From NCBI GenBank assembly GCA_035541775.1, contig DATKMP010000120.1, positions 1 through 39,196 of the forward strand: a stretch of DNA of 39,196 bases, written 5' to 3'. The notes beneath the pieces were generated by a model that had not been told where the DNA came from, searched no databases, and was given only the letters and a program-made list of their open reading frames with translations. Positions 11,190 through 30,819 of this stretch are shown here, piece after piece (position 1 is the stretch's first letter; each line of letters starts with the position of its first letter). This stretch comes from Bacteroidota bacterium. GTDB lineage: Bacteria; Bacteroidota; Ignavibacteria; UBA10030. Made by a program: the position numbers and the translations under genes.

Positions 11190-11230
11190 CACCTGCCGTT
11201 TTCTCATAACGCAAATAGAAACAATCATCA

Positions 11231-11271
11231 CAAGCGCCGGCGACGAATTTGAAAATCGAAACCGGCGCTTG
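11231..11271 (+). other. Intra-operon stem-loop between the GH3 and GH116-like genes
   Basis: CAAGCGCCGG (11231-11240) pairs perfectly with CCGGCGCTTG (11262-11271). The loop is 21 nt and can partly pair internally. Only GTTT follows, so it is not a classic terminator. Confidence 0.4.
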
Positions 11272-11315
11272 GTTTAAAACAGAACCTTCAAAAAGAAATT
11301 ATAAATTACAAACCA

Positions 11316-14893: not shown

Positions 14894-14960
14894 AGGAGTG
14901 ATAAAAGCGTTAATCGATCTTTTCGCAGGAACGATTTCCGTTACATATTTTGAGTTATGA

Positions 14961-14988
14961 TGCTGTTAGAGATAACAGCATTTTTTTT
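14961..14988 (+). terminator. Rho-independent terminator of the GH3-GH116-PfkB operon
   Basis: TGCTGTTA-GAGA-TAACAGCA is a perfect 8-bp stem with a tetraloop, followed directly by T8 (14981-14988). Confidence 0.8.
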
Positions 14989-15001
14989 GCCGCCAGTGGT
15001 T

Positions 15002-15450
15002 TTAAGGGCACAGTGCGATACCCATGGTGAACTTTTTAGAAGCCCTTTCAACAATGGTCGTACGCCGGTCATCCATCGTCATCCACGCATCTTGATGATA
15101 CTTTCCTGCTTTCGGTTCACCAAAGTGCTGAAACGTTTATCGAACGGTCAACCATAAGGGAATCCAGAATTCTGTACTTTGCGCCATGCCGGTTCATCGG
15201 CGGGGAAGATGGGTGGGCAAATAAAAACGTCCGGGTGTGTCAGATTGGTTTTAAAACAGGTTCTCGTAAAATTTGTTTGCTATAATACTAAAAAAGTAAA
15301 TCAACCATGTGTCTCGACGTCCGATAGGGTTTCGTGATATTGGACATCTGCACCGCCGGCCTCCATGATCGCTATCGTCGAAGTTTCGATAGGAATAAAG
15401 TCCATGGTTCCACAAGGATTTTTCTTGATCTGTGCAGTTACCAAGCTCAT
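15002..15450 (-). pseudogene. Possible decayed minus-strand gene: an intact 49-codon 5' ORF followed by out-of-frame protein-like fragments
   Basis: The reverse strand reads ATG(15450)..MSLVTAQIKKNPCGTMDFIPIETSTIAIMEAGGADVQYHETLSDVETHG*(15301). Further fragments follow in other frames: HPDVFICPPIFPADEPAWRKVQNSGFPYG* and FQHFGEPKAGKYHQDAWMTMDDRRTTIVERASKKFTMGIALCP*(15002). I recognised no family. Confidence 0.25.
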
Positions 15451-15471
15451 ATTTTCATAGAGTAAAATTGT

Positions 15472-15534
15472 TTTTTAACTTGCTTTTACAGACCTTACAT
15501 ATTATTATTGAATCGGTTTAATTGTTGTTGAACC
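15472..15534 (+). promoter_or_regulatory. Conserved promoter/operator block, copy 2. -35-like TTAACT (15475-15480), same A/T-rich -10 region, inverted repeat GGTTTAA-N6-TTGAACC (15515-15534)
   Basis: Direct repeat of 9229-9293 with about 90% identity. It lies about 180 nt upstream of the GPH transporter start. Confidence 0.55.
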
Positions 15535-15716
15535 TTTTAAAAAGAATAACAAGAGCCGAAGAAAAATGACGCGGATCTCGTTAATCTATTTGGTAGGTCA
15601 CTTGGTCGATGAAGAATGGTCGTACACCATTGATGTGAGAAATGAAAATCGCCAAAAGCTGTTCGTATTGTTACGGTTTCGTTTAATCAAATAAAAAAAA
15701 TAATTTAGAATAACGC

Positions 15717-17093
15717 TTGAGGTCTCTTGTGCAATCTCTTTCTGAAAAACTTTCCGTAAAAGAAAAAGTCGGATATGCCCTTGGCGATACCGCCGCTAAT
15801 TTTATTTTCCAAACGATGATTATGTTCCAGTTGGCATTTTACACCGACACGTTCGGTTTAACTGCCGTTGCTGCAGGAACATTGTTTTTAGTGGTACGAT
15901 TCTGGGATGCAATTTTTGACCCTGTTATGGGAGTGGTTGCAGATAAAACCAATACACGATTCGGAAAATTTCGTCCATGGATTTTGTGGACCGCAATACC
16001 GTTCGGGATCATGGGATTTTTAACATTCATGACGCCGAACTTTTCGCCAGGCGGAAAATTAATTTATGCATACGTCACCTATATTATATTGATGATGGTG
16101 TATTCGGCGAACAACCTTCCGTATTCGGCGTTGAGCGGAGTGATGACCGGAAATCTTGGTGAACGCACCGGCTTGTCGCAGTACCGATTTGTGTTTGCAA
16201 TGATTGCACAGTTGATTATTCAAGGGTTGGCTCTGCCGATGGTGTATTTTTTCGGCAAGGGCAATAATGCCATCGGGTATCAATGGACCATGGGAATTTT
16301 TTCCACGCTTGCAGTTTTCTTGTTCTTTATTACGTTCGCAACGACGAAAGAACGCATTCAACCGGCGCCGAATCAAAAGGCAACGGTCAAACAACACTTT
16401 TCCGACCTTACCAAAAATGGCCCGTGGATGGCAATGTTCGCGCTTACCATTATTCTCTTTATTACGCTCTCGCAGCGTGGAAGTGTTGTGCTCTATTACT
16501 TTAAATATTATGTACGGGATGAAGGCTACTTTAGCATGTTCAATGTGCTGGGAACGCTCGCCACGATTATCGGTATCTTTTTCTCAAAAGGACTGGCAAT
16601 GAAATACGGCAAACGCAACGTGTTCATCGGCGGCTTGCTGGGAACAACGTTGTTCACGGCGCTCTTTGTATTCTTGCCGCCTTCTGCAGTGCCGATGATG
16701 TTTGCCACTGAAATTCTCCGACAGTTTTCCTATGGGTTCACCATTCCATTGTTATGGGCAATGATGGCAGACGTTGCAGATTATTCCGAGTGGAAAAACA
16801 ACCGGCGTGCAACCGCGATTGTTTTCTCGGCAATTGTATTCGCCTTAAAAGCGGGACTTGGTTTTGGCGGCGCCATATCCGGCTATGTATTGTCCCTCTA
16901 CGGCTACGTGCCGAACGCGGTTCAAACACCGGAAGCGTTAAATGGCATACGCATGGCAATGAGTATTTTTCCGGCAATCACATTTGGACTCTGTGTAATA
17001 TGTTTGTGCTTCTATCGCATTAACAAGCAAACGGAAATTCAAATCTCAACGGAGTTAGAAGAGCGGCGCAAGTTGTACGCTCCCGCGAACTAA
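15717..17093 (+). CDS. Glycoside-pentoside-hexuronide (GPH) family sugar:cation symporter (xyloside/xylo-oligosaccharide or glucuronide transporter type)
   Basis: GPH N-terminal signature KVGYALGDTAANFIFQ..FYTD..GL.A..AGTLFLVVRFWDAIFDPVMGVVADKTNTRFGKFRPW. About 12 predicted hydrophobic segments. The start is TTG 15717 or GTG 15729. Confidence 0.88.
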   Translation: MRSLVQSLSEKLSVKEKVGYALGDTAANFIFQTMIMFQLAFYTDTFGLTAVAAGTLFLVVRFWDAIFDPVMGVVADKTNTRFGKFRPWILWTAIPFGIMGFLTFMTPNFSPGGKLIYAYVTYIILMMVYSANNLPYSALSGVMTGNLGERTGLSQYRFVFAMIAQLIIQGLALPMVYFFGKGNNAIGYQWTMGIFSTLAVFLFFITFATTKERIQPAPNQKATVKQHFSDLTKNGPWMAMFALTIILFITLSQRGSVVLYYFKYYVRDEGYFSMFNVLGTLATIIGIFFSKGLAMKYGKRNVFIGGLLGTTLFTALFVFLPPSAVPMMFATEILRQFSYGFTIPLLWAMMADVADYSEWKNNRRATAIVFSAIVFALKAGLGFGGAISGYVLSLYGYVPNAVQTPEALNGIRMAMSIFPAITFGLCVICLCFYRINKQTEIQISTELEERRKLYAPAN

Positions 17094-17106: not shown

Positions 17107-18240
17107 GTGAATCATTTTTTAAATAATAGAGAACAAAGGTTGTTTTTAATGTTGACGTGGTTGAGCTCTGTTTGTCTCTTCGGCACGGGGTGCAATAGTG
17201 TTTCAGCACAAACGTTGCCGAGCTTAAAAGAAGTCTTTAAGAACAATTTTTTGATCGGCGCGGCAATCAATCAAAATCAAATTTCTGAACGCGATACGAT
17301 CGGAGTCGCAATTCTTTCATCGCAATTTAATTCTATCTCACCGGAAAATGTACTAAAATGGGAACGCGTGCATCCGCACTTCGACCGGTACGATTTCGAC
17401 GCTGCGGACCGTTATGTTGCTTTTGGAAAAAAATATGGCATGGCCATCATCGGACATGTTTTGGTCTGGCACAATCAAACACCACCATGGGTCTTTGAAG
17501 ACAGCGCGGGAAAACCGGTAGATCGTGAAACATTGTTGCAACGCATGCACGAGCATATTGCAACGGTGGTCGGCCGATACAAGGGGCAGGTTCATGGCTG
17601 GGATGTTGTGAACGAAGCAGTGAATGAAGACGGCACGCTTCGTGAAAGCCCATGGCTGAAAATAATCGGTGAAGATTATATCGAAAAAGCATTTCAATAT
17701 GCGCATGAAGCCGATCCGTCTGCGGAACTTCATTACAATGATTTCTCGTTGGAGAACAAACCAAAACGCGATGGCGTTTTGAAGTTGATAACGAAGTTGA
17801 AGGAACATGGTGTTCCGGTAACGGCAGTCGGATTGCAAGGGCACTATAAAATGGATTGGCCGACGCTTGCTCAAATCGATACGACGGTTGATGAATTTGG
17901 CAAACTCGGGACGCGTGTTATGATCACCGAATTGGATGTTGATGTTGTTCCTGCCACGCAAGCCAATCGCGGAGCGGATCTTTCATTGAACAATCAACGA
18001 CAAGCGCATGCCGATGTATATGCTGCCGGTTTGCCGGATTCCGTACAGCAAGCGCTTGCAAAACGATATGCCGGCCTCTTTACCGTGTTTCTTCGCCATA
18101 AAGAGATTGAACGGATAACATTTTGGGGCGTAACAGACGCCAATTCGTGGCTCAATACCAGGGGCCGCACCAATTATCCGCTGCTCTTTGATCGAGAAGG
18201 AAAAGCTAAGCCGGCATTCGATGCTGTGATAAAACATTAA
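17107..18240 (+). CDS. GH10 endo-1,4-beta-xylanase with signal peptide and no T9SS C-terminal domain
   Basis: GH10 motifs GHVLVWHNQTPPWVF, GWDVVNEA (acid/base Glu), VMITELDV (nucleophile Glu), ITFWGVTD. The start is GTG 17107 or, more likely, ATG 17149 (MLTWLSSVCLFGTGCNSVSAQ), which gives a possible lipoprotein Cys. Confidence 0.92.
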   Translation: MNHFLNNREQRLFLMLTWLSSVCLFGTGCNSVSAQTLPSLKEVFKNNFLIGAAINQNQISERDTIGVAILSSQFNSISPENVLKWERVHPHFDRYDFDAADRYVAFGKKYGMAIIGHVLVWHNQTPPWVFEDSAGKPVDRETLLQRMHEHIATVVGRYKGQVHGWDVVNEAVNEDGTLRESPWLKIIGEDYIEKAFQYAHEADPSAELHYNDFSLENKPKRDGVLKLITKLKEHGVPVTAVGLQGHYKMDWPTLAQIDTTVDEFGKLGTRVMITELDVDVVPATQANRGADLSLNNQRQAHADVYAAGLPDSVQQALAKRYAGLFTVFLRHKEIERITFWGVTDANSWLNTRGRTNYPLLFDREGKAKPAFDAVIKH

Positions 18241-18260
18241 TGGCATTGTGTGAGAAATTT

Positions 18261-18294
18261 TTGTACAATGGAAACGGTTACATATATACATTGT
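18261..18294 (+). promoter_or_regulatory. Candidate sigma70-type promoter for the TBDT unit (TTGTAC-16 nt-TATATA), flanked by a 6-bp inverted repeat ACAATG/CATTGT
   Basis: -35-like element at 18261-18266 and -10-like element at 18283-18288. ACAATG 18265-18270 pairs with CATTGT 18289-18294. It shares the TTACATAT string with the conserved blocks at 9229 and 15472. Confidence 0.3.
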
Positions 18295-18327
18295 TAGAGA
18301 CGTCAATCAATCGAAAGGAGAATAACT

Positions 18328-21300
18328 GTGAATGATATTTTGAAACAAACGGTGACGACAATAAAGTCGCTTCTAAATCGTGCGGGTTGTCGTTTTAGAT
18401 GCCAAGATATTTTTGTTGGCGGAATTATTTTTATGCTCGCCTCTTCTATGGCGTTGGCAGGCGGAACGATCCGCGGAAAACTGCTTGACAAGGAATCAAA
18501 AGATCCATTACCCGGCGCAAACGTTGTTGTTAAAGGAACAAGTTTGGGTACATCGACGGATATTGATGGCGCGTACGTTATTTACAATGTTCCGGCAGGC
18601 GCACAAACCGTAATCGGATCGTATGTCGGATATCTTTCGCTTTCGGTGACAATCAATGTGACGGAAAATAGTGATATCACACAAAACTTTTATCTTAAGA
18701 GTACGGAAATCGAAGGCGAAGCGGTCGTCGTGACGGGGCAAGCCCAAGGGCAATTGCAAGCGATCAACCAACAAATATCGTCAAACAAAATTGCCAATAT
18801 CGTCTCCGAAGAAAAAATTCAAGAATTGCCCGACTTTAACGCCGCACAGGCAATCGGTCGTTTACCTGGTGTCTCGACAACGAAGAATCAGGGTGAGGAT
18901 AATAAAATAGTTATTAGAGGTTTAGCTCCTCAATTTAATGCGGTTGCCGTTGGCGGTATTACGCTTGCTTCAACGGGAAGCACTCAGATCGGGGCAACTT
19001 CGACCGGCCTCACTTCAGGTACGATGAGTAATGATAGAAGTGTTGACCTTACCATGGTAACTCCCTATATGATCAAATCGATCGAAGTTTATAAGTCGCT
19101 TACTCCTGACATGGAAGCGAACGCAATAGGCGGTTATGTGAACATGGAGTTGAGAGAAGCCCCATCGGGATTGCGCACGAACGTACTGTTTCAAGAAGGT
19201 TATACAGAAAAGAGCAACACCTACGGAAACTATAGAGCCGTGGTTTCGGCGAGCGATCGATTCTTCGGAGATAAAATCGGTGTTTATGTACTCGCAAACG
19301 CAGAACAATACGATCGCAGTGCAGATAACATGAACGCGGGTTACCAAACCGCGAATTCACTTGTGGATTCAACCGGGTTCAGGCAGGTTCGTGTAACCAA
19401 TGTGACACTTGATCGCCATGTTGAAACCAGAAACCGATACGGCGCAAACGTGATTCTGGATTATATGCTGCCCTTCGGCTCTATCAAATCGGTGAATATG
19501 TTCAGCCGCGAGAGGGAGGATTACACGGATTATAGCGAACTTTTGAATTATGCCAGTCCAAACTATGATATAGATTTTCGTTACCGGCAGGGTATCAATA
19601 CGAATGATGTTGCTGTCAATTCTTTAGAATTTACAAATGATTTTAAACTTTTCTCCGTGGATATCAAGGCGGCGAATTCATATTCAAGGAATGCCCAGCC
19701 GCTCTCGCCGTATTATACATTTTTTCAAAACGGCGGCATCAGCCACACAAACGTTCCGACAGGCCATATAAATATACTTCCAGAAAATCTTGTGCATTTT
19801 CTTACCCCACAACCAGACTCGACAACGTTGTTGGGATCGACGAGTATGTTTAGTGCCGCATATCAAGAGAACGATCAAATCTATAAGGGCGATTTCAAAG
19901 TCCCGATGAACATCAGTTCATTCCTCTCCGGCTTCTTTAAGTTCGGCGGTGAATATCGATATAATCTTCAAAAAAATGACCAGAGCACGCCGTATATTTC
20001 AATCAACAAAGGGAATTCCACAAATCGTGATATAAATTATACGGTTGCGCAAGCTATTAATGCACTGTGGCCTAACTTGCGGTATGCAAGTACCGGACAA
20101 CTGGAAGGAGCTAACTTCACCAATAGTGAATCAAAACTTTATAATAGCTTTCTGAGTAACAAATTCGGGAGCATGTATTGGGCTACAAACCCGACCATCC
20201 TGAATGGAATGATGAATTACATCATGAACAATGCTGCTCTTCAGGCAACGAACTCTGTCGGTGGATGGTTCAACGGCCCATACCAAAATCTTCCTAATGA
20301 TTACAAATATTCTGAAAAATATACTGCAGGATACTTGATGGGTGAGTTGGACGTAAGCCAGCAATTTATGATAGTCGGCGGCGCGCGTTATGAAGAAGTT
20401 CATGGCTTGTTCGATGCTTACAACATGGAGGATGAACGTAACCCGGCAATTCAGCCGTATCGAAAGGTCTCGGCCAGTATGTGGAATCATTTCTGGCTCC
20501 CACAGGTACAGGCGAAGTATAGTTTTGGTAATTGGGCAGATTTACGGTATTCATACACGCAGACACTTGCCAGGCCCGATTATACCCAGCTCGATCCGCA
20601 TTATAATATATCGGCCGATTCCCCAAGAAACATCTATTCTGGCAATCCTAACCTTGTACCGGCACAGGCATATAACCACGATGTCTTGTTGTCGCTTCAT
20701 TCCAACGACTTAGGCCTTCTCACCATCGGCGGCTTCTACAAGGAAATAAAAAATTTCACCTATGCCACATCGTACCACCTGCACAGTCAAGCTGTGTATA
20801 ATAAATTTGGTATAACCGGCCTCGACTCTGTAACATCATTCCCCGAATTATCTCCTGTTACGGATGATGATGCAGTGTTGAACACGTTCGTCAACAGTCA
20901 GTATATTGCATATGTAAAGGGACTTGAGGTAGATCTTCAAACGAGACTCTGGTATCTTCCCGCTCCTTTTAACGGAATAGTGCTCGGGATTAATTACACG
21001 CACGTTTGGTCAAGAGCCATTTATCCATACTACGACGAAAATGCTCTTCGAGGCGTGATTACGAAGTTCACCGACAGTACAAGAGTTGGCCGGTTGATTG
21101 ATCAGCCAAATGATATTTTGAACAGTTACGTTGGCTATGATTACAAAGGATTTTCAGCCAAAGTTACCTTTACGTTCCAAGGAAATTCTGTCACCTATGT
21201 CGGAGCATATCCCGAGACGGATGGTTTTTCCAAAGATTATTTTAGTGTCGGTTTTTCCGCGAGACAGATGTTGCCATGGACAGGGCTTTCAATATTCTTC

Positions 21301-21417
21301 GATGCGAACAATCTTAACAGCGAATCGAATATTTCTACTCAGCCGTCGATTGGCGGATTCACTTCTGAAAACTTCTACGGCATGACATTAAATTTAGGTA
21401 TTCGATACGAACTTTAA
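18328..21417 (+). CDS. SusC-like TonB-dependent outer-membrane transporter with N-terminal carboxypeptidase-regulatory-like domain
   Basis: AAGGAG RBS 8 nt before the GTG. The CarbopepD_reg-like segment is GTIRGKLLDKESKDPLPGANVVVKGTSLGTSTDIDGAYVIYNVPAGAQTV. Plug region (VVVTGQAQG..KIANIVSEEKIQELPD.NAAQAIGRLPGV). A long beta-barrel ends in NLGIRYEL. Confidence 0.9.
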   Translation: MNDILKQTVTTIKSLLNRAGCRFRCQDIFVGGIIFMLASSMALAGGTIRGKLLDKESKDPLPGANVVVKGTSLGTSTDIDGAYVIYNVPAGAQTVIGSYVGYLSLSVTINVTENSDITQNFYLKSTEIEGEAVVVTGQAQGQLQAINQQISSNKIANIVSEEKIQELPDFNAAQAIGRLPGVSTTKNQGEDNKIVIRGLAPQFNAVAVGGITLASTGSTQIGATSTGLTSGTMSNDRSVDLTMVTPYMIKSIEVYKSLTPDMEANAIGGYVNMELREAPSGLRTNVLFQEGYTEKSNTYGNYRAVVSASDRFFGDKIGVYVLANAEQYDRSADNMNAGYQTANSLVDSTGFRQVRVTNVTLDRHVETRNRYGANVILDYMLPFGSIKSVNMFSREREDYTDYSELLNYASPNYDIDFRYRQGINTNDVAVNSLEFTNDFKLFSVDIKAANSYSRNAQPLSPYYTFFQNGGISHTNVPTGHINILPENLVHFLTPQPDSTTLLGSTSMFSAAYQENDQIYKGDFKVPMNISSFLSGFFKFGGEYRYNLQKNDQSTPYISINKGNSTNRDINYTVAQAINALWPNLRYASTGQLEGANFTNSESKLYNSFLSNKFGSMYWATNPTILNGMMNYIMNNAALQATNSVGGWFNGPYQNLPNDYKYSEKYTAGYLMGELDVSQQFMIVGGARYEEVHGLFDAYNMEDERNPAIQPYRKVSASMWNHFWLPQVQAKYSFGNWADLRYSYTQTLARPDYTQLDPHYNISADSPRNIYSGNPNLVPAQAYNHDVLLSLHSNDLGLLTIGGFYKEIKNFTYATSYHLHSQAVYNKFGITGLDSVTSFPELSPVTDDDAVLNTFVNSQYIAYVKGLEVDLQTRLWYLPAPFNGIVLGINYTHVWSRAIYPYYDENALRGVITKFTDSTRVGRLIDQPNDILNSYVGYDYKGFSAKVTFTFQGNSVTYVGAYPETDGFSKDYFSVGFSARQMLPWTGLSIFFDANNLNSESNISTQPSIGGFTSENFYGMTLNLGIRYEL

Positions 21418-21534
21418 CGAAAATGAAAAGTGAAGGTATTCCGATTTGTTGCATTTGATCGTAGAAAAAAATATATTTTCACATTGCTGTTTAGTATGAA
21501 TTATTTATTAACCATAAATTAAAGGAGAAGTAAC

Positions 21535-23373
21535 ATGAAAAAAATTGTTATTGCGCTGCTTTTTATTGCGGCAGCATTTTCAGTATCACTTTATGCCCAA
21601 ACAGTTGTGCCGGTTACGAGCGATGCTGTTACTGGTACCGAAGGAAATCTTAACAATCAAATTAACGCTGTGATCACCGCAGATCCCACGGGAGCACAGC
21701 TATCCAACACGGTGTTCCAATTAGCCGCTGGTGGTTATTACGTTCTCACCAGCACAATTACAACGCCGGCACATTCGCATCTTACCCTTGTAGGGCCAGA
21801 TCCGGGTACGACGTTTGAAACATCGTTGCCGCAAATAGTATGGACCAACAGCGGCGGCGTGACGACAACATTTAATTTTGATTGCGGCGGCGATCTCACG
21901 ATGAAGAACATCTGGATTCTCTGCGCAAAAACAAGCGGCGCTCAAGTTGGAACGAGCATCGTGTTAGAGGATGATTCCCTTGCCAATCTGAGCGGCAAAG
22001 GCGAACACTTAGTGATGGATGGCTGCAATATCGATTACCAGAGCATCGGTAATGGCGGCGGAGCGATTGAGCCGTCTTGCAGACACCTTCGCGCACAAAT
22101 TACCAATACCTATTTCCGAAATTGCACCGACCCGCACTACCGTTATTACGGCAGGCCATTATCATTCACCTATCAAAGTACCACATGGCACATCGATACA
22201 GTGAACTTTGAAAATTGCACCTTCGCAAACTGCGGATACGATTATATGCAGGAATCTCCTGAATATGGTGATCATGTTTCATTCAACCATTGCACGTTTG
22301 TGAACACCATGATGTTCACATTAGAATCATCCTATTGGTGGTGGTTGTCGGTGACGAATTGCCTCTTTGTGAACTCGTATATGTTTGGCGACATTCCTTC
22401 CGGAGACGGTGCTAACCATTTTGGCGCCGGTGGATTGGTGAACATCGACAGCGTGAAGTCGTTTGGCTTTACAGTACCTTTTTCAGATTCTACGACAGTT
22501 TCGTCAGCGCTTCAGCGCCATATCCTGATCTCTAACAACAGTTATGGCCATGAAAAATGGTACACAGATTATCTTACGAACAATCCATATTTACCATCCG
22601 GCGATACAGACAAAATACACCGTATGCCTGCGATGAGCAGTAAGACACTGAAGTTCTTCACCGGGACTACAAACAATCAAAAGAACTTTCCCTATATGAC
22701 CCTGGCAAATCTTTATCCGTCTGTTGATACTATTGCTGATTGGCCATGTACCTATAATGCTGCAACAGATCCAGGATTTATTCAAAATCCATGTAACGAA
22801 GATAGCATTAAAGCATTTTTATTAGGCAGATGGTATAACGGAACAGATCATAGCTGGGCATACAATCCCTCTGCGGATGTGGCACAGAGCTGGCCATTGG
22901 CCGAAGACCTATCGTACACAAATCCCACGTTGAAAGCTGCTGCCATGGGTGGTTTCCCGTTAGGCGACCTCTTCCATTGGTGGGGACCAACAAGTACGGT
23001 TGATAAATATACATCATGGCTTGCTCAAGCGCCTGCGGAACGCGCCAGCATCTTGAACCAGTTGACTAATGGTCCTACGTCCGTCAATGGGCGGGGATCA
23101 AATGTTCCTTCAAAATATGAACTGAATCAGAACTACCCGAATCCGTTCAACCCATCAACCGTCATCAAATTTTCACTGCCCGTTCAGAGCAATGTCCGGT
23201 TGGAGTTGTTGAATATCTTAGGACAGGTTGTAAAAGTGGTGGCTGCGGGAACATACAGTGCAGGTTCTCATGAAGTGACCTTGAATGCTTCTTCACTTGC
23301 AAGCGGCGTGTATTTCTACAAACTTCAAACAGAGAATTTCTCTTCTGTGAAGAAAATGCTTCTGTTGAAGTAA
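21535..23373 (+). CDS. Secreted 612-aa protein of unknown function with a predicted right-handed beta-helix-like core and a T9SS C-terminal sorting domain. It occupies the position of SusD
   Basis: AAGGAG RBS. Signal peptide (AAAFSVSLYAQ). Quasi-periodic coils LTMKNIWI / LVMDGCNI / ITNTYFRNC / VNFENCTF / VSFNHCTF / SVTNCLFV spaced about 22-36 aa apart. C-terminal YELNQNYPNPFNPST..GVYFYKL..KKMLLLK. Confidence 0.8.
   Translation: MKKIVIALLFIAAAFSVSLYAQTVVPVTSDAVTGTEGNLNNQINAVITADPTGAQLSNTVFQLAAGGYYVLTSTITTPAHSHLTLVGPDPGTTFETSLPQIVWTNSGGVTTTFNFDCGGDLTMKNIWILCAKTSGAQVGTSIVLEDDSLANLSGKGEHLVMDGCNIDYQSIGNGGGAIEPSCRHLRAQITNTYFRNCTDPHYRYYGRPLSFTYQSTTWHIDTVNFENCTFANCGYDYMQESPEYGDHVSFNHCTFVNTMMFTLESSYWWWLSVTNCLFVNSYMFGDIPSGDGANHFGAGGLVNIDSVKSFGFTVPFSDSTTVSSALQRHILISNNSYGHEKWYTDYLTNNPYLPSGDTDKIHRMPAMSSKTLKFFTGTTNNQKNFPYMTLANLYPSVDTIADWPCTYNAATDPGFIQNPCNEDSIKAFLLGRWYNGTDHSWAYNPSADVAQSWPLAEDLSYTNPTLKAAAMGGFPLGDLFHWWGPTSTVDKYTSWLAQAPAERASILNQLTNGPTSVNGRGSNVPSKYELNQNYPNPFNPSTVIKFSLPVQSNVRLELLNILGQVVKVVAAGTYSAGSHEVTLNASSLASGVYFYKLQTENFSSVKKMLLLK
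23116..23370 (+). other. T9SS C-terminal sorting domain (Por_Secre_tail type) of the 612-aa protein
   Basis: YELNQNYPNPFNPSTVIKFSLP....LNILGQVV....AGSHEVTLNASSLASGVYFYKLQTENFSSVKKMLLLK. Confidence 0.85.
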
Positions 23374-23399: not shown

Positions 23400-23439
23400 C
23401 ATCGGAGATCCTTTCTTGGGATCTCCGATGAAAATTTTT
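23400..23439 (+). terminator. Stem-loop terminator after the 612-aa gene
   Basis: CATCGGAGATCC-tttcttg-GGATCTCCGATG is a perfect 12-bp stem, followed by AAAATTTTT. Confidence 0.6.
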
Positions 23440-23657
23440 CATAAAAATGTAATAGAAATAAAAAAATAAGGAGGTGGTTTAAATCAGCTTGGGATGTAAG
23501 GCGTAGCGCTGTTTGTTTTAGCTTTAATCACGTAAAAGTGATTGGTTGTATGTAAAAAAAATATTTTCCTTTTTTGCGGAGAATATTTTGGAGTTACAAA
23601 TTGTATGAAACACTTTTTAATTAACAACTATCCAACAACAAAAACCTTGGAGGAATT

Positions 23658-26600
23658 ATGAAAAGGTTTACGATACTAATACCAGCCCTAGTACTCGTCC
23701 TCGTATTGGGAATGAGTCTGGCAACTGGTCAGGTGGCGGACCCAGTTTTTTCTGGCGGCCCGGGTTTGACTATACCATCAGGCGCCGCAAACGGCGGCTT
23801 TGCATGGGGCGATGTGAACGGAGACGGTTTTCTCGATGTCTTTATTCCGTCGAATAACATAATGCTCAATAGTAGCGGCACGACGTTCACTGCATCGACA
23901 ACAATGACGGCGAATGTAACGGTTAGCACGAACTCTGTCGGATGTTTACTTGCCGATTTCAACGGCGACGGAGTTCTCGATCTGTTCACAACGAATGGCG
24001 GAACACCCAGTTCTGGCCTCTACTATAACACCGCTGGTGTATTTACCGCGGCAACCGGAACAGGCGATCTTGCCAATGCAGGAGTTACGGGCGAAGTTTT
24101 CCAAGGTGCTGCGGTAGCAGATATTAATCACAGCAATTACCTTAGTATTACTTGGCCAGGAAACTTCACAAATATTTCAGCTAGTGCCGGCCCATATCCC
24201 AGCGGCGGCGGTATTTGGCTGCTGAAAGGCAATGCAGGCGGAACGTTTACCAATCTTGGAAACGGAGCATATGCGGATATCACTGCAAATATTGTAGATG
24301 TTTTTTCAGGTAGCGCCATTGGTACAGCAATCACCGGTATCGGCTGGAGTGCTTCGGATGCTAACGCAACAGTCGCCGCTGATCCGGTTGTCAGTTCAAA
24401 CAAAGTTATGAAAGTTAAAATTGGCAACTATAATGCAGCGCCTGTACTTTCATTTTCCATACCTGCCGGCAGAACACTGGCAAACTATAACAAATTCATC
24501 TTCAAGGGCTATTGGGCACAGGGAGATGTTGGTTACAAGAGTATTGTTGTTGAAGCGTCCCAATCGTCTCCGACGGGACAGGCGTTTAACAACACAGGCG
24601 GAAAAGTTCAAATTGGTTCAGTGAGTCGCTCTAAAGGCGCTTCCACTGCATGGGAATATGATACAGTGGTCATTGCCAATAGTTCCAGTCTTAGCGGAAC
24701 GGTCTATCTTGATTTTGGAATAAATTGTGCAGGTAAAGGAGCGCTTGGCACTGTTACTACCGCTGATAGTTCAACGCAATGGTATGCGGATAGTGTCACG
24801 CTTATAGGAGCGCCAGCTCCAGCTCAAGCCATCGATACGACACTTTCGCATGAAGCATGGCAGCTTTCTTTCCTTGATGCAAACAATGATGGATATCCTG
24901 ATTTATTAATGCCGAGTTTCCGAAATGGACTCTCCTTAATCGACACCGGTACAGCAGGTGGTCGTAAAGGATGCGTCTTATATATGAACGATGGAACAGG
25001 TAAATTTATTGTTCCTAACGCAACTACGCTTGGACGCCCAATTTATTCGGTCGGTGCAAGTGGAGCCAGCACAACAGTTGATACCGGAATCATTGTTGAC
25101 GATACAGTTCGTCACTTTGGCGCCATCGGCGAACAATGGGGCGACCTCAACAACGATGGTAACATGGATCTGATATTGAGCTGTAATAGTGCGGTAAATA
25201 ATAATAGCACTGGAGCTCTGGTGAACATTATTATTCTGTATGGAAAAGGCGATGGCACGTTCACGTACAAGTGGAATGGAACAAGCATTGTTACCGCCAA
25301 TGGAATTGTACAGAATGGAAACCAACGCTCGATAGGCATTGGCGACTACAACAATGACGGGCTGCAAGATATCGTGACACACGAGACATACAGCGGTCCT
25401 GTCCATTTGTACAAGAATAACGGCGATGGCACGTTCACTGACGTAGCGACCAATCTTGGCCTGACGCCGGTGAGCGGTACCATACGATCTGTGCAGTTTG
25501 TTGATTACAATAACGATGGGTTCCTGGATGTTTTTGCATGGTCTGGCGGCGCTGGCGGCAATCTTTTGCAGAAAAGCGGCGGCAACACCAACCATTGGAT
25601 TGGTTTCAAACCTATCGGCTCAGGTCACAATATGTCGGCTATTGGTGCGCGCTTTACCGTGTACACCGGAACGACAAAGCAAGTTCGCGATATTAAAGCT
25701 GAAGCCGGCGAAGGAGCTCAAGGTGGAGAATTAAGAGCGCTCTTCGGAATTGGAGCAAACACAAAAGTTGACAGCGTGAATGTTCGATGGCCGGATGGAA
25801 CAAGCACAATGTACAATTTCGGTAGTGCAAGCAATACTCTTGCGGTAAATAAGTATTATACCGTGCAAGAAGGATCGATCATTCCGTCAACACCTGCAAC
25901 GGGAAGACCGTCATGGGCATCGGCAGATACTTCTTTGCCTTCTGTGAACACGATGACGTGGCATAAAGTGGCAAGTGGAGCACAACCGTTGACGTATCAA
26001 ATACAAATTGGTACCAACAAGGCAATGTCCACGATCCTTCAAAGTTTCACAGGATTAACAGATACCACGAAATCTGTGAAGCTTCCTCTGGCAACGAAAC
26101 TCTACTGGCGTGTATCTTCATGGAATAACGATTTCCAGAGTGCATGGTCGGTGGTAGATAGTTTCCGTACCAATATGACGCCTGTGGCGCCAACAGCGAT
26201 ACCTCCAATTCTTTCACCGGCAGTGAACAGCACAACCGTGCCGAAGATTCCTGTGATTACATTGGGAAGTATTTCGACGGCATATACATATCATATTCAA
26301 ATTGATACGTTGAATACGTTTGCACACAGAGATTCAGTAAAATCGTATTCAGGCCTCATTCTTAATGATTCAACATCATTCTTAGATACAGTTGAAACAA
26401 TTAAGTCTGTGACATTTACGAACAGCAAGAAATATTTCTATCGCGTTCGTGGATGGAATGCTGCCGGTGCATCGAATTTCTCTGCAGTGGATTCGTTCAC
26501 CATCATGTTTATTCCAGCACCGCCAAGCATGATCTATCCGGCGCATAACCAAGCAAACGTGCCAGTCAATCCTCTTACGTTCAAATGGCATACAGTTGCT

Positions 26601-27407
26601 GGCGACAGTAACTATGTCGTTAAATACTGGACATCTACACCTTTAGGATTGGCTACCGTTGTCGATACGACCACTCCGGGTCATGATACAGTGCTGACGG
26701 TCAACGGAATGGAAAACCGTGCGAAATATTACTGGCAGATCCAGACCGTGAACCAAGGTGGAGCAAGTGCTTTCACGGCAGTGGATTCCTTTACCACCGT
26801 CATTGAATTGCCGGGTGTACCACTTACAATCTCTCCGAAGAGTGTTGTAGCATCATCAGGAAAGCCGACGTTTGTATGGAACAGCTCGGCAAACGCCGTT
26901 TGGTATCATCTGCAAGTTGCTACAACGAATTTCGCCAGCGCTTCTGATGTTGTATTAAATGATACACTCCGTGATACAACATTGACAGTAATAGATACGC
27001 TGCAACCAAGCTTTACCTATTACTGGCATGTGAGTGCTATTAATTTGGGCGGCGAAAGTGCATTCTCTACGTCTGCACACTTCACGACACCATTAACCAG
27101 CGTGCAAACAGGATCGGCTGTGCCGAAAGAATTTGCACTCAATCAAAACTATCCGAATCCATTCAACCCGTCGACGATGATCTCGTATGATCTGCCAAAG
27201 AGCTCGTATGTAAAGCTCCAGATCTATGATGTCCTTGGACGACTTGTTACGACTTTGGTTGATGGTGTACAACCGGTAGGCCGTCAGAATATTCAATGGA
27301 ATGCCGGCAGATTAAGCAGTGGTGTGTACATCTATCGTCTCCATGCTCGTAGCCAGGATGGAGCGAGCGACTTTACTTCCTCAAAGAAACTTTTGTTGAT
27401 GAAGTAA
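23658..27407 (+). CDS. 1249-aa secreted multidomain protein: FG-GAP/VCBS beta-propeller repeats with an inserted CBM-like beta-sandwich, an ASPIC/UnbV domain, four Fn3-like modules and a T9SS C-terminal domain
   Basis: GGAGG RBS and signal peptide. FG-GAP Ca-binding-like motifs DVNGDGFLDVF, DFNGDGVLDLF, DANNDGYPDLL, DLNNDGNMDLI, DYNNDGLQDIV, DYNNDGFLDVF. ASPIC/UnbV-like NHWIGFKPIGSGHNMSAIGARFTVYTG...VDSVNVRWPDG. C-terminal EFALNQNYPNPFNPST..GVYIYRL..KKLLLMK. Confidence 0.85.
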   Translation: MKRFTILIPALVLVLVLGMSLATGQVADPVFSGGPGLTIPSGAANGGFAWGDVNGDGFLDVFIPSNNIMLNSSGTTFTASTTMTANVTVSTNSVGCLLADFNGDGVLDLFTTNGGTPSSGLYYNTAGVFTAATGTGDLANAGVTGEVFQGAAVADINHSNYLSITWPGNFTNISASAGPYPSGGGIWLLKGNAGGTFTNLGNGAYADITANIVDVFSGSAIGTAITGIGWSASDANATVAADPVVSSNKVMKVKIGNYNAAPVLSFSIPAGRTLANYNKFIFKGYWAQGDVGYKSIVVEASQSSPTGQAFNNTGGKVQIGSVSRSKGASTAWEYDTVVIANSSSLSGTVYLDFGINCAGKGALGTVTTADSSTQWYADSVTLIGAPAPAQAIDTTLSHEAWQLSFLDANNDGYPDLLMPSFRNGLSLIDTGTAGGRKGCVLYMNDGTGKFIVPNATTLGRPIYSVGASGASTTVDTGIIVDDTVRHFGAIGEQWGDLNNDGNMDLILSCNSAVNNNSTGALVNIIILYGKGDGTFTYKWNGTSIVTANGIVQNGNQRSIGIGDYNNDGLQDIVTHETYSGPVHLYKNNGDGTFTDVATNLGLTPVSGTIRSVQFVDYNNDGFLDVFAWSGGAGGNLLQKSGGNTNHWIGFKPIGSGHNMSAIGARFTVYTGTTKQVRDIKAEAGEGAQGGELRALFGIGANTKVDSVNVRWPDGTSTMYNFGSASNTLAVNKYYTVQEGSIIPSTPATGRPSWASADTSLPSVNTMTWHKVASGAQPLTYQIQIGTNKAMSTILQSFTGLTDTTKSVKLPLATKLYWRVSSWNNDFQSAWSVVDSFRTNMTPVAPTAIPPILSPAVNSTTVPKIPVITLGSISTAYTYHIQIDTLNTFAHRDSVKSYSGLILNDSTSFLDTVETIKSVTFTNSKKYFYRVRGWNAAGASNFSAVDSFTIMFIPAPPSMIYPAHNQANVPVNPLTFKWHTVAGDSNYVVKYWTSTPLGLATVVDTTTPGHDTVLTVNGMENRAKYYWQIQTVNQGGASAFTAVDSFTTVIELPGVPLTISPKSVVASSGKPTFVWNSSANAVWYHLQVATTNFASASDVVLNDTLRDTTLTVIDTLQPSFTYYWHVSAINLGGESAFSTSAHFTTPLTSVQTGSAVPKEFALNQNYPNPFNPSTMISYDLPKSSYVKLQIYDVLGRLVTTLVDGVQPVGRQNIQWNAGRLSSGVYIYRLHARSQDGASDFTSSKKLLLMK
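24285..24815 (+). other. About 177-aa CBM-like/beta-sandwich insertion between FG-GAP repeats of the 1249-aa protein
   Basis: This segment lacks DxNxDG motifs and interrupts the repeat series. It reads like a carbohydrate-binding-type sandwich (GWSASDANATVAADPVVSSNKVMKVKIGNYNAAPVLSF..LANYNKFIFKGYWAQ...QWYADSVTLIG). The fold assignment is inference. Confidence 0.4.
25881..27089 (+). repeat. Four tandem Fn3-like protein modules (25881-26171, 26172-26504, 26505-26798, 26799-27089) inside the 1249-aa CDS
   Basis: Each 97-111-aa unit carries a W..V....Y.(I/V)Q core, then Y(Y/F)WRV/YRVRGWN/YWQIQTVN/YWHVSAIN + ..G.S.(F/W)S, and ends (A/V)VDSF(R/T)(T/I) or SAHFTT. This is the Fn3 F-G strand pattern. 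The units are diverged at the DNA level. Confidence 0.7.
27129..27404 (+). other. T9SS C-terminal sorting domain of the 1249-aa protein
   Basis: EFALNQNYPNPFNPSTMISYDLP...IYDVLGRLV....NAGRLSSGVYIYRLHARS..DFTSSKKLLLMK. It parallels 23116-23370. Confidence 0.85.
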
Positions 27408-29781: not shown

Positions 29782-30819
29782 GTGAAGAAAATAACTATTG
29801 AAGACGTTGCAAAGAGATCGGGTGTGTCAAAGGGCACGGTTTCTGCGGTGATCAATGCAAAAAACACGGTGAAACCCGCAACGCGCAATCACATTCTTGA
29901 AGTAATGAAAGAATTGAATTTCCGCCCAAAAGGTGTTGCACGAAATTTAAAAAACGGCAATCAAGATAAAACCATTGGTATCATCATCAAAGATTTGACG
30001 TATCCTTTTTATACCGCTATTGTTTCCGGAGCAAGGGATTATGCGACGAACAAAGGATATTCCGTCATTGTTTCGAGCTCAGACGATAACCATGAACGTG
30101 AAAAATATTTTTCTCACCTCTTTTCGACAAAAGATATCAAAGGAGTGATCATCGCGCCGGTCGTTGAAGGCGCGGCAGAGATTGAACATCTCTTTCGATT
30201 GAAAATGATCAACTATCCATTTGTGCTGTTAGAAGATGTAAAAGGTATTCAAGCGAATGTTGTGACGATTGATAATATCAAAGCAATCAAACGTGCGGTC
30301 AAATATTTAATTAGTACGGGACACACGAAGATTGTTCATTTTGCCGGCCCTTCGAGCTCCTCGCACACGCAAGAACGCATTGAAGGATTTCGATATGCAT
30401 TTAGCGAAAGTCCGCTAGTATTTCATAACGACATGATTGTCTCGATCGGTTCACATTTTGACGAAAGCTATGTAAAGACGATCGAGTATTTCAAAGAGAA
30501 ACAGCGAAGCGATTACCCGACAGCCATTGTGTGCTTTAACGATCTTCAAGCGCTGGCGGTGATGATGGCGCTGAAAGAATTACAAATTTGTGTTCCTGAA
30601 GATATTTCCGTCGTTGGGAATGATGATATCTTCTATGCGAAGATTTATCCAATCCCGCTAACGACCATCAATGCACCACAACATGAAATCGGCAGACGAG
30701 CAGCAGAAATATTAATTACGAATATTGAATCTCCTTCCTTATTACCCAACGAACATGTAATTCTGGAAACGGAGTTTGTCGTTCGTGAATCATCCCGGGT
30801 TCTGATTGGAAAAAAATAA
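29782..30819 (+). CDS. LacI-family transcriptional regulator
   Basis: N-terminal HTH ITIEDVAKRSGVSKGTVSAVINAKNTVKPATRNHILEVMKELNFRPKGVARNLK followed by a periplasmic-binding-protein-like sugar-binding domain. GTG start. Confidence 0.92.
   Translation: MKKITIEDVAKRSGVSKGTVSAVINAKNTVKPATRNHILEVMKELNFRPKGVARNLKNGNQDKTIGIIIKDLTYPFYTAIVSGARDYATNKGYSVIVSSSDDNHEREKYFSHLFSTKDIKGVIIAPVVEGAAEIEHLFRLKMINYPFVLLEDVKGIQANVVTIDNIKAIKRAVKYLISTGHTKIVHFAGPSSSSHTQERIEGFRYAFSESPLVFHNDMIVSIGSHFDESYVKTIEYFKEKQRSDYPTAIVCFNDLQALAVMMALKELQICVPEDISVVGNDDIFYAKIYPIPLTTINAPQHEIGRRAAEILITNIESPSLLPNEHVILETEFVVRESSRVLIGKK

Follow-up and report, generated by a model that had tools for sequence, protein, structure and literature searches.

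A type IX-sorted beta-helix protein encoded behind a non-SusC TonB-dependent transporter is a candidate glycan-capturing partner in an Ignavibacteria-like xylan locus

The DNA analyzed here (the window) is a stretch of 39,196 nucleotides from a Bacteroidota bacterium of the Ignavibacteria lineage UBA10030 (assembly GCA_035541775.1, contig DATKMP010000120.1). All genes from position 3 to 30819 lie on the forward strand and together form a xylan-utilization locus. Within it, directly 3′ of the gene for a TonB-dependent transporter (TBDT) and separated from it by a gap of 117 bp, an ATG-initiated open reading frame encodes a protein of 612 amino acids, the target of this analysis (Table 1). An initial annotation, made from the sequence alone, had described this reading frame, its place behind the TBDT and nine short motifs in its product, all of which are present where they had been reported, and had offered two functions, a surface glycan-binding protein (SGBP) or an unrecognized family of xylan-active enzymes. 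Comparative data across the protein family support the first of these at slightly better than even odds, and a glycan-capturing partner of the TBDT is more likely than a new xylan enzyme.

The target begins with a Sec signal peptide in which no lipobox cysteine was seen on inspection of the sequence. Residues A21 and Q22 are near-invariant in an alignment of 52 homologues, and cleavage behind A21 would probably leave Gln22 as the mature N-terminus. At the other end of the protein, TIGR04183 is matched with 46.0 bits in an NCBIfam scan (cut-off 23) and PF18962 with 45.6 bits over amino acids 534-608 in a Pfam scan (cut-off 27), and the same region has profile and fold matches to the C-terminal sorting domains (CTDs) in the structures 8glj, 8glk and 8gl6 of the T9SS (type IX secretion system) translocon. 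The sorting route that had been proposed was thus borne out: by its sorting domain and Sec signal peptide, the target is a type A T9SS cargo. No T9SS genes lie within the window, and its only other T9SS cargo is the FG-GAP protein encoded by the next gene.

The fold of the target body was examined with an AlphaFold2 model of the full-length protein, built from a 52-sequence alignment (mean pLDDT 85.3, pTM 0.79). The initial annotation had picked out by eye six periodic motifs and had attributed them to a beta-helix with a spacing of 22-36 residues. In the model the motifs LTMKNIWI (starting at residue 121), LVMDGCNI (159), ITNTYFRNC (189), VNFENCTF (223), VSFNHCTF (248) and SVTNCLFV (272) do form six successive coils; the actual gaps between their starts, 38, 30, 34, 25 and 24 residues, are slightly wider than had been stated. 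Since each motif sits on a strand-turn-strand coil unit (119-124/127-130, 157-162/165-167, 185-190/193-195, 220-226/229-233, 245-251/254-258 and 268-274/277-279), the periodicity corresponds to the beta-helix repeat. Extra coils precede the six flagged ones, and one more follows them (residues 329-338). The coils are lined by two asparagine ladders, N163-equivalent/N191/N227/H252/N275 and N196/N232/N257/N280. In a set of 79 distant relatives with 22-34% identity to the target, used here to define superfamily conservation, the ladder positions are 84%-97% conserved (N163 and N232 stand outside that list); the conserved ladder and turn positions are N125, N191, N196, N227, H252, N257, N275, N276, N280 and N335.

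Foldseek searches with the full-length model returned only Ig-like matches to the sorting domain, and for this reason residues 22-516, without the signal peptide and CTD, were modeled again. This second model has a pLDDT of 70.4, good enough for fold assignment. Nearly all of its top 50 matches are right-handed beta-helix proteins, among them PL6 lyases, RbmB, tailspikes, AlgE4, pectate lyases and members of GH55, GH82 and GH87, and the best is the PL6 alginate lyase 7dmk (E 3.3e-5, TMq 0.38, 14% identity). The Pfam family Beta_helix (PF13229) matches residues 155-291 with E 3.4e-5 and 24.0 bits, under its cut-off of 25.9, and rises above the cut-off in homologues (31.8 bits in that of locus L029, 36.5 bits in P0152). 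The models and the Foldseek matches thus agree that the target body is a right-handed parallel beta-helix of the Pfam clan Pec_lyase-like, as had been suspected. The mixed alpha/beta part that follows ends in a long helix (residues 491-512) and is conserved as a single unit with the beta-helix. It contains the motifs WYTDY, WYNGTDHSWAYNP and FHWWGP, beginning at residues 342, 433 and 480. The description of the C-terminal half as rich in aromatic residues stands, with 13.7% F+W+Y in residues 301-512, but it is not distinctive, the rest of the protein (residues 22-300) being nearly as rich with 11.8%.

Table 1. Features of the target gene, its product and the surrounding xylan locus, in window coordinates
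Feature	Position	Strand	Basis or remark
GH8, GH115, GH97 and GH43 genes	within 3-30819	+	signal peptides, without T9SS tail
GH3 and GH116 genes	9351-13877	+	without signal peptide; recur together in relatives L081 and L084
PfkB-like kinase gene, then terminator-like hairpin	hairpin 14959..14982	+	10-pair stem, T run
MFS_2 glycoside/oligosaccharide symporter, first gene of putative operon	15717..17093	+	PF13347, E 5.9e-99
GH10 endo-xylanase	17107..18240	+	PF00331, E 3e-101; N-terminal hydrophobic segment, without CTD
TBDT	18328..21417	+	CarboxypepD_reg N-terminal domain, plug, 'TonB-Xanth-Caul' type barrel
Ribosome-binding site AAGGAG	21522..21527	+	7 nt 5′ of ATG; read in sequence
Target open reading frame, 612 amino acids	21535..23373	+	ATG initiation
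Sec signal peptide, residues 1-21, MKKIVIALLFIAAAFSVSLYA before Q	21535..21597	+	read from sequence; predicted cleavage site
Right-handed parallel beta-helix, residues 22 to ~340	21598..22554	+	AlphaFold2 model, Foldseek, Asn ladders
Six coils flagged in the initial annotation, residues 121-279	21895..22371	+	motif coordinates; paired strands in model
Inter-coil loop segments, residues 196-219, 234-244 and 259-267	22120..22335	+	proposed xylan-binding groove
C-terminal mixed alpha/beta, aromatic-rich part of body, residues 341-512	22555..23070	+	model pLDDT 84-95
C-terminal motif W453-P454...Y461...P475-x-G477-D478-L479-x-x-W482	22891..22980	+	84%-99% conserved in 79 relatives
Flexible linker, residues 513-533	23071..23133	+	pLDDT <50 at residues 515-524
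Type A T9SS C-terminal sorting domain, residues 534-612, and stop codon	23134..23373	+	TIGR04183, PF18962, CTD structures
Terminator-like hairpin, strong, intrinsic type	23400..23430	+	13 pairs (7 G-C), 27 nt past target stop codon
FG-GAP/ASPIC (CRTAC1-like) beta-propeller protein, 1249 amino acids, T9SS-sorted	23658..27407	+	Pfam
SASA-type esterase, 698 amino acids	27419-29515	+	split SASA (sialate O-acetylesterase-like, CE6-type) domain, GH2-N/galactose-binding-like insert
LacI regulator	29782-30819	+	3′ part of locus, beyond SASA gene

The transporter upstream is not of the SusC type. Its best model is TIGR01782, with 291.8 bits just short of the cut-off of 310, and the SusC/RagA model TIGR04056 reaches 68.5 bits against a cut-off of 368, over residues 47-255 only, a match confined to the CarboxypepD_reg and plug region. 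By these profiles the TBDT is a hybrid in which a SusC-like CarboxypepD_reg N-terminus is set on a TIGR01782-type barrel. With the annotated GTG start, the stretch ahead of the hydrophobic segment is unusually long, and the true start may lie downstream. Pfam scans of the window proteins revealed no SusD-like gene. The taxonomic frame of the initial annotation, which had pointed to proteins behind SusD in some Bacteroidota polysaccharide utilization loci (PULs), does not fit: the TBDT is non-SusC, the loci of the family are not SusC/SusD PULs and the host is Ignavibacteria-like, with a LacI of 75% identity encoded in an Ignavibacteriales metagenome-assembled genome.

The target belongs to a large, uncharacterized family. 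A word-indexed search gave 531 homologues at E ≤ 1e-3, and a profile search with the body only retrieved at least 564 cluster representatives (clustered at 50% identity), with E ≤ 1e-10 for 323; most members match the entire body of ~480 residues (profile positions 1 to ~480). All homologues are labeled 'hypothetical' or 'T9SS type A sorting domain-containing protein'. They come from Ignavibacteria, Candidatus Kryptonia, Balneolales (one cultured isolate) and Rhodothermia, and further from Marinimicrobia, Calditrichaeota and Candidatus Acidoferrales; the Balneolaceae isolate ANBcel3 encodes the member P0353. The target body is not covered by any Pfam or NCBIfam model, and PDB sequence and profile searches matched the sorting domain only. 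In the literature searched there was no account of the family, nor of SusD-less TBDT partners in these phyla; the genome paper on Melioribacter mentions a classical sus operon alone (PMC3534657). Longer members carry added CBM35, CBM4_9, Laminin_G_3 or fn3/Ig spacer domains, and no known catalytic domain was found fused to them. Genomes often hold several paralogues, some on the same contig (P0019/P0027, P0272/P0281, P0025/P0354), and tandem sets occur in which the order TBDT, partner is repeated (L141, 8945-20301) or a TBDT-partner pair is followed by a second TBDT (L168, 6854-14930). The tandem sets and same-contig paralogues indicate that the pair has been duplicated repeatedly within genomes.

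The position behind the transporter is a property of the family. In four relatives with 47%-73% identity, all from xylan loci, the TBDT is followed by the homologue and then by the FG-GAP/T9SS protein, and each close member checked lies under 400 bp behind the TBDT on its strand. Relatives at just 21%-25% identity also follow a homologous TBDT, and do so in other surroundings: in L004 the neighbors GH53-T9SS and GH35 mark a galactan locus, in L029 GH5-T9SS, GH5 and GH27 mark a mannan locus, and in L002 there are no CAZymes (carbohydrate-active enzymes) nearby. A genome-contig search keyed on the CTD motif QNYPNPFN had returned mostly unrelated T9SS proteins, with L001-L004, L024, L029 and L042 as the only useful loci. 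An independent sample of 80 metagenome loci was collected through the C-terminal motif P[LV]GDLNWF, of which 41 had enough upstream sequence to be assessed. In 31 of the 41, a TBDT of the same clade precedes the member on its strand at a distance under 400 bp, and 14 further members on truncated contigs have a partial TBDT upstream. Among loci fetched for an unrelated reason, three of four TBDTs of this clade were followed by a family member.

The substrates predicted from the neighboring enzymes are varied. Xylan contexts are marked by GH10, GH43 and GH115. Another cassette consists of TBDT, member (with CBM35), GH130, 2-epimerase, GH26 and MFS, with a GH2 mannosidase or GH94 near it, which by its gene content is the classical beta-mannan route. 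A GH9 cassette contains TBDT, member, a protein with a peptidyl-prolyl isomerase (PPIase) domain, a 780-residue protein and GH9, with CE15, GH30 and GH10 around it. Elsewhere the TBDT and member are followed by a PL11 rhamnogalacturonan lyase or, in an alpha-mannan cassette, by GH38, and three extra loci show GH28/GH127/GH27/GH88/GH9 contexts and a second xylan-locus lineage at just 25% identity. On this gene content, the loci of the family are predicted to target xylan, beta-mannan, galactan, rhamnogalacturonan, alpha-mannan and GH9-type substrates. The PPIase (rotamase) cassette recurs in 11 metagenome loci (L123, L126, L130, L136, L138, L141, L159, L160, L163, L167 and L115; for example at 10245-17013 of L163); it comprises a PPIase protein of ~590 residues, the 780-residue protein with a weak spermine-synthase-like match and, usually, a GH9 with CelD_N.

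Transporter and partner have also changed together. Over 40 pairs, the pairwise identities of TBDT and partner correlate with r = 0.94, and with r = 0.77 where TBDT identity is under 45%, which indicates that each pair was duplicated and has evolved as a unit. In 93% of comparisons the partner has diverged further than the transporter (mean identity 30% versus 36%). A partner that diverges along with its transporter, and faster, is the pattern known from SusC/SusD pairs.

Conservation within the beta-helix is distributed in a manner that may reflect substrate tuning. Three inter-coil loop segments, residues 196-219, 234-244 and 259-267, are the best-conserved part of the protein in the xylan clade, with top-residue frequencies of 0.72-0.85, and the least conserved part across the superfamily (0.27-0.32, with few gaps). 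Residues D199, H201, Y204, Y205, R207, H219, Y235, E240 and E264 are invariant or nearly so in the xylan clade, and W268 also counts among the clade-specific residues. Unlike the loops, the strands and Asn ladders are retained throughout the superfamily. Segments 168-184, 234-244 and 259-267 contain no acidic or basic position that is kept superfamily-wide; loop 196-219 was outside that listing of charged residues, and only N196 and G206 recur there. Being conserved in the clade yet variable in the superfamily, the loops fit a substrate-specific site on a shared scaffold and not a shared catalytic centre. From beta-helix geometry and strand register, rather than from coordinates, the three loops are expected to lie on one face. 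A further conserved element is the C-terminal motif, which reads 'PLGDLNWFP' in most relatives and served well as a search pattern. More speculatively, this motif (W453...PLGDLxxW482) may be a structural cap or a candidate surface facing the transporter.

The assignment that best accommodates these data is that the target is a T9SS-displayed, non-catalytic, substrate-tuned glycan-binding partner of the upstream TBDT, with a role like that of SusD or an SGBP, and we give it a rough probability of 0.55. With about the same confidence it can be seen as the xylan-tuned member of a family that fills this role in bacteria of the Fibrobacteres-Chlorobi-Bacteroidetes (FCB) group outside Bacteroidia. 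In its favor, the place after the TBDT is kept while the substrates vary, the two proteins co-diverge, the loops are clade-specific, the window has no SusD-like gene, and fusions are limited to binding or spacer modules.

The other genes of the locus show where such a partner would act. Terminator-like hairpins on both sides and the 117-bp gap suggest that MFS, GH10, TBDT and target form one transcription unit, the upstream end of which is probably marked by the hairpin behind the kinase gene. Non-coding gaps at 14894-15716 (~820 bp) and 23431-23657 (~230 bp) flank the putative unit, with a terminator-like hairpin at the 5′ side, and a gap of ~900 bp is seen at the equivalent place in the syntenic locus L081. 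Both flanking gaps probably hold promoter and LacI-operator regions. An Rfam scan of the window gave no match, and matches in a sigma-70 promoter scan were at chance level and were not used. The MFS_2 gene upstream of the TBDT is conserved in relatives, and its product is predicted to take up xylo-oligosaccharides across the inner membrane. The GH10 enzyme is probably periplasmic, as it has a signal peptide but no T9SS domain. The absence of signal peptides from GH3 and GH116 and their joint recurrence in the relatives L081 and L084 suggest that these enzymes would break down imported xylo-oligosaccharides or glucuronosyl-oligosaccharides in the cytoplasm after MFS uptake.

Downstream of the target, the FG-GAP protein has four or five Ig/fn3-like spacer domains, and its sole PDB sequence match is cartilage acidic protein 1 (9etn, E 1e-8). 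In the xylan clade its gene is always next after the beta-helix gene; it is absent from the mannan and galactan cassettes. The SASA protein is probably an acetyl-xylan esterase, judging by its domains. Its gene follows the FG-GAP gene in L081-L083 too, and L170 ends with a similar SASA/GH2_N gene. The GTG start listed for the SASA gene gives no signal peptide, and the start codon is doubtful. Behind the SASA gene, L081 has two tandem GH10-T9SS genes (17707-21209) where the window has LacI; past LacI, the window continues with unrelated genes (glutamate-synthase-like oxidoreductases, TetR and an efflux system). The earlier remark that the locus lacks an extracellular xylanase is accurate for the window, in which the GH10 has no sorting domain, but does not extend to its syntenic relatives: three of the four close xylan loci encode one or two T9SS-tailed GH10 enzymes, and the fourth has GH8 and no GH10. 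This weakens the idea that the locus needs the target as its xylanase. On the gene content of the window, the extracellular xylanases of the host must be encoded elsewhere in the genome or have been lost.

The following course of events is proposed. The target would be transcribed as the last gene of the unit, exported by Sec through the signal peptide visible in its sequence, probably leaving the N-terminal glutamine, and carried across the outer membrane by the T9SS through its type A CTD. As is known for other type A cargo, the CTD would then be removed and the protein attached to the cell surface. There, the face of the beta-helix formed by the three loops may bind xylan or xylo-oligosaccharides through the clade-specific residues listed above, and the target would hold these oligosaccharides or hand them to the TBDT for TonB-driven import. 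Breakdown would be finished by the periplasmic GH10, GH8, GH43, GH115 and GH97 enzymes, the MFS symporter and the cytoplasmic GH3 and GH116.

Comparison with known systems places the target close to SusD in role and far from it in structure. Like SusD-like proteins, it is encoded immediately 3′ of a glycan TBDT, belongs to a pair that has many paralogues per genome in loci for different glycans, diverges faster than its transporter, is probably located at the surface, judged by its sorting signals, and is presumed to capture glycans for the transporter. In contrast to the all-alpha, tetratricopeptide-repeat-like SusD fold, the modeled target is a beta-helix; it has T9SS C-terminal sorting and no lipobox where SusD is lipidated at the N-terminus, and its TBDT is non-SusC. 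Because fold, signal, anchor and TBDT type all differ, the target is at most an analogue of SusD. Membership of SusD/RagB was rejected, no SusD Pfam model matching the target at E up to 10. The SGBPs of Bacteroides, in SusE/F position, and the 'utilisome' complexes that White et al. reportedly described in Nature in 2023 offer a second parallel. Like the target as proposed here, they are non-catalytic surface proteins encoded beside the transporter, highly divergent between loci and tuned to their substrate; they are lipoproteins made of Ig-like or CBM-like beta-sandwiches encoded behind SusD, whereas the target, as a candidate binder, is a beta-helix T9SS cargo directly behind the TBDT. Beta-helix proteins of the DUF4957/DUF5123 type follow SusD in some Bacteroides pectin PULs and are possibly non-catalytic. 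They served as a lead only: a literature search on the function of these PUL proteins found nothing, and membership of DUF5123/DUF4957 (PF17161, PF16318) was rejected, PF17161 reaching E = 4 and 9.1 bits against a cut-off of 35.1.

The locus as a whole, which is not a SusC/SusD PUL, resembles in its gene content a hybrid of a Bacteroidota PUL and a proteobacterial 'CUT locus'. The TBDT-centered CUT loci of Xanthomonas and Caulobacter, which Blanvillain et al. are said to have described in 2007, share with it the TIGR01782-type barrel; there, too, the TBDT is grouped with glycoside hydrolases, a LacI regulator and a sugar transporter of the inner membrane. They differ in that the TBDT here carries the SusC-like CarboxypepD_reg N-terminal domain. 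CUT loci are not known to have a T9SS or to encode a dedicated surface partner behind the TBDT.

Several points weigh against a binding partner. The function of the target is deduced from context and conservation, which makes it a candidate binder. In Proteobacteria, TIGR01782-type TBDTs are not known to need a partner of their own, co-inheritance by itself would make neighboring genes diverge together, and type A T9SS cargo can be released instead of anchored. In addition, 10 of the 41 assessable metagenome members have no TBDT neighbor, and six or seven of these form a clade (L092-L102, 511-644 residues). Members of this clade (L092, L094, L095, L099, L100, L102 and L145) come from peat and soil metagenomes and are mostly 511-576 residues long; the 511-residue forms are, judged by length, too short for body and sorting domain. 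The proteins of this clade may be anchored in another way or be soluble, and possibly belong to another phylum.

The remaining objections coincide with the case for catalysis. Almost all structural neighbors of the target, and all the good ones, are enzymes (lyases, hydrolases, epimerases), led by the PL6 alginate lyase noted above, and a body with CBM35 or CBM4_9 and a CTD, as in some members, is also a layout typical of secreted enzymes. Several charged or polar positions are kept across the superfamily, namely D/E162 (94%), D/E167 (92%), R195 (86% basic), D221 (82% acidic), H252 (95%), R328 (95%) and D478 (96%), and these might make up an active or metal site common to the superfamily; D/E162, D/E167, N191, R195 and D221 are the conserved positions that might correspond to the Ca2+ site and catalytic Lys/Arg of PL6 lyases. 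The window has no other T9SS-tagged xylan enzyme, and among 10 mannan-cassette representatives scanned, the GH26 had no T9SS match (GH26 cluster lengths 349-433 residues). The target might therefore be the founding member of a new beta-helix CAZyme family (an endo-glycanase, lyase or esterase) which would sit at the surface beside the transporter, couple cleavage to uptake and be retuned per glycan by subfamily. We regard this as unlikely. The initial annotation had recognized no catalytic signature, and indeed no GH, PL or CE model of Pfam or NCBIfam and no PDB sequence was matched, nor was a catalytic family assigned by Foldseek. The family holds the post-TBDT slot in loci for chemically unrelated glycans (beta-1,4-linked xylan, mannan and galactan; rhamnogalacturonan I; alpha-mannan; GH9-type substrates), for all of which one mechanism is unfit. 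A lyase would be unable to act on neutral backbones, so that the neutral-glycan loci argue against lyase chemistry. The inter-coil loops, the usual place of the active site in beta-helix enzymes, hold no superfamily-conserved charge in the segments surveyed, and several of the conserved polar residues occupy, by the strand register of the model, sites in an Asn ladder or a turn, which points to a structural role. Close xylan loci already have T9SS-tailed GH10 enzymes. As a function of the family, a xylan-specific enzyme was rejected because the substrate contexts are too diverse for one catalytic chemistry, and the second function offered at the outset thus finds no support.

The known beta-helix proteins of this kind (PL6, PL1/PL9, GH28, GH55, GH82, GH87, CE8, AlgE epimerases and phage tailspikes) share with the target the fold, the Asn ladders and a place in glycan-degradation loci. 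The target differs from them in its extra conserved, aromatic-rich C-terminal subdomain of ~170 residues, in the fixed post-TBDT slot of its family across unrelated substrates and in that no conserved catalytic constellation was found. PL6 was rejected, with no PL6/chondroitinase B Pfam match, no PDB sequence or profile match and a weak fold match only. GH28, CE8 and pectate lyases were likewise rejected (PF00295, PF01095, PF00544 and PF12708 unmatched at E up to 10); the same Pfam search picked up genuine GH28 proteins of related loci with ease.

A binding partner could also be bound more tightly to the barrel than is proposed here. The reading in which the transporter requires the target as a structural subunit, acting as lid or assembly factor in stable complex with the barrel and so truly replacing SusD in structure, draws on the same adjacency and co-divergence; the C-terminal motif is found superfamily-wide whatever the substrate, as expected of a protein-protein interface, and the TBDT retains its SusC-like N-terminal domain. 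We consider this quite improbable, as TIGR01782-type barrels function alone in other phyla, a C-terminal T9SS anchor behind a flexible linker has a geometry unlike that of N-terminally lipidated SusD, and the 10 members without a TBDT neighbor do not fit an obligate subunit. Least probable is a surface adhesin or structural/surface-layer protein that ties the cell to plant particles, has no hand-over role and is linked to the TBDT by co-regulation only: beta-helix adhesins are common, the target has a T9SS domain, relatives have Ig/fn3 spacers, one clade lacks an adjoining TBDT and the cassette partner has the adhesion-type CRTAC1-like FG-GAP fold, but a constant slot right after the TBDT across several phyla, co-divergence with the TBDT and conserved loops specific to the substrate clade all speak against it, and co-regulation alone would not fix the gene order so tightly.

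The substrate-tuned binding partner thus remains the preferred assignment. A stronger proposal, held tentatively and with low confidence, is that FCB bacteria outside Bacteroidia evolved their own two-part glycan importer, in which a non-SusC TBDT and an obligate, T9SS-anchored beta-helix subunit for lid function or capture form a defined complex with the barrel, as a convergent replacement of SusD by another fold and anchoring route, duplicated and retuned for each glycan. The lineages that would share it, again doubtfully, are Ignavibacteria, Kryptonia, Balneolales, Rhodothermia, Marinimicrobia and Calditrichaeota.

Models of glycan foraging for Bacteroidota relatives rest on the SusC/SusD pair, and tools for PUL prediction search for that pair. 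If the target and its relatives are glycan-binding partners, a TBDT followed by a family member would be a signature by which to recognize glycan loci in Ignavibacteria, Kryptonia, Balneolales, Marinimicrobia and other environmental degraders like them, and the family would be a ready source of beta-helix binders that differ in glycan specificity. If the members are enzymes instead, they would make up a new CAZy family sited at the point of uptake. As binding partners, they would represent a second, independently evolved way of handing polymers over to an outer-membrane transporter, with T9SS anchoring in place of lipidation.

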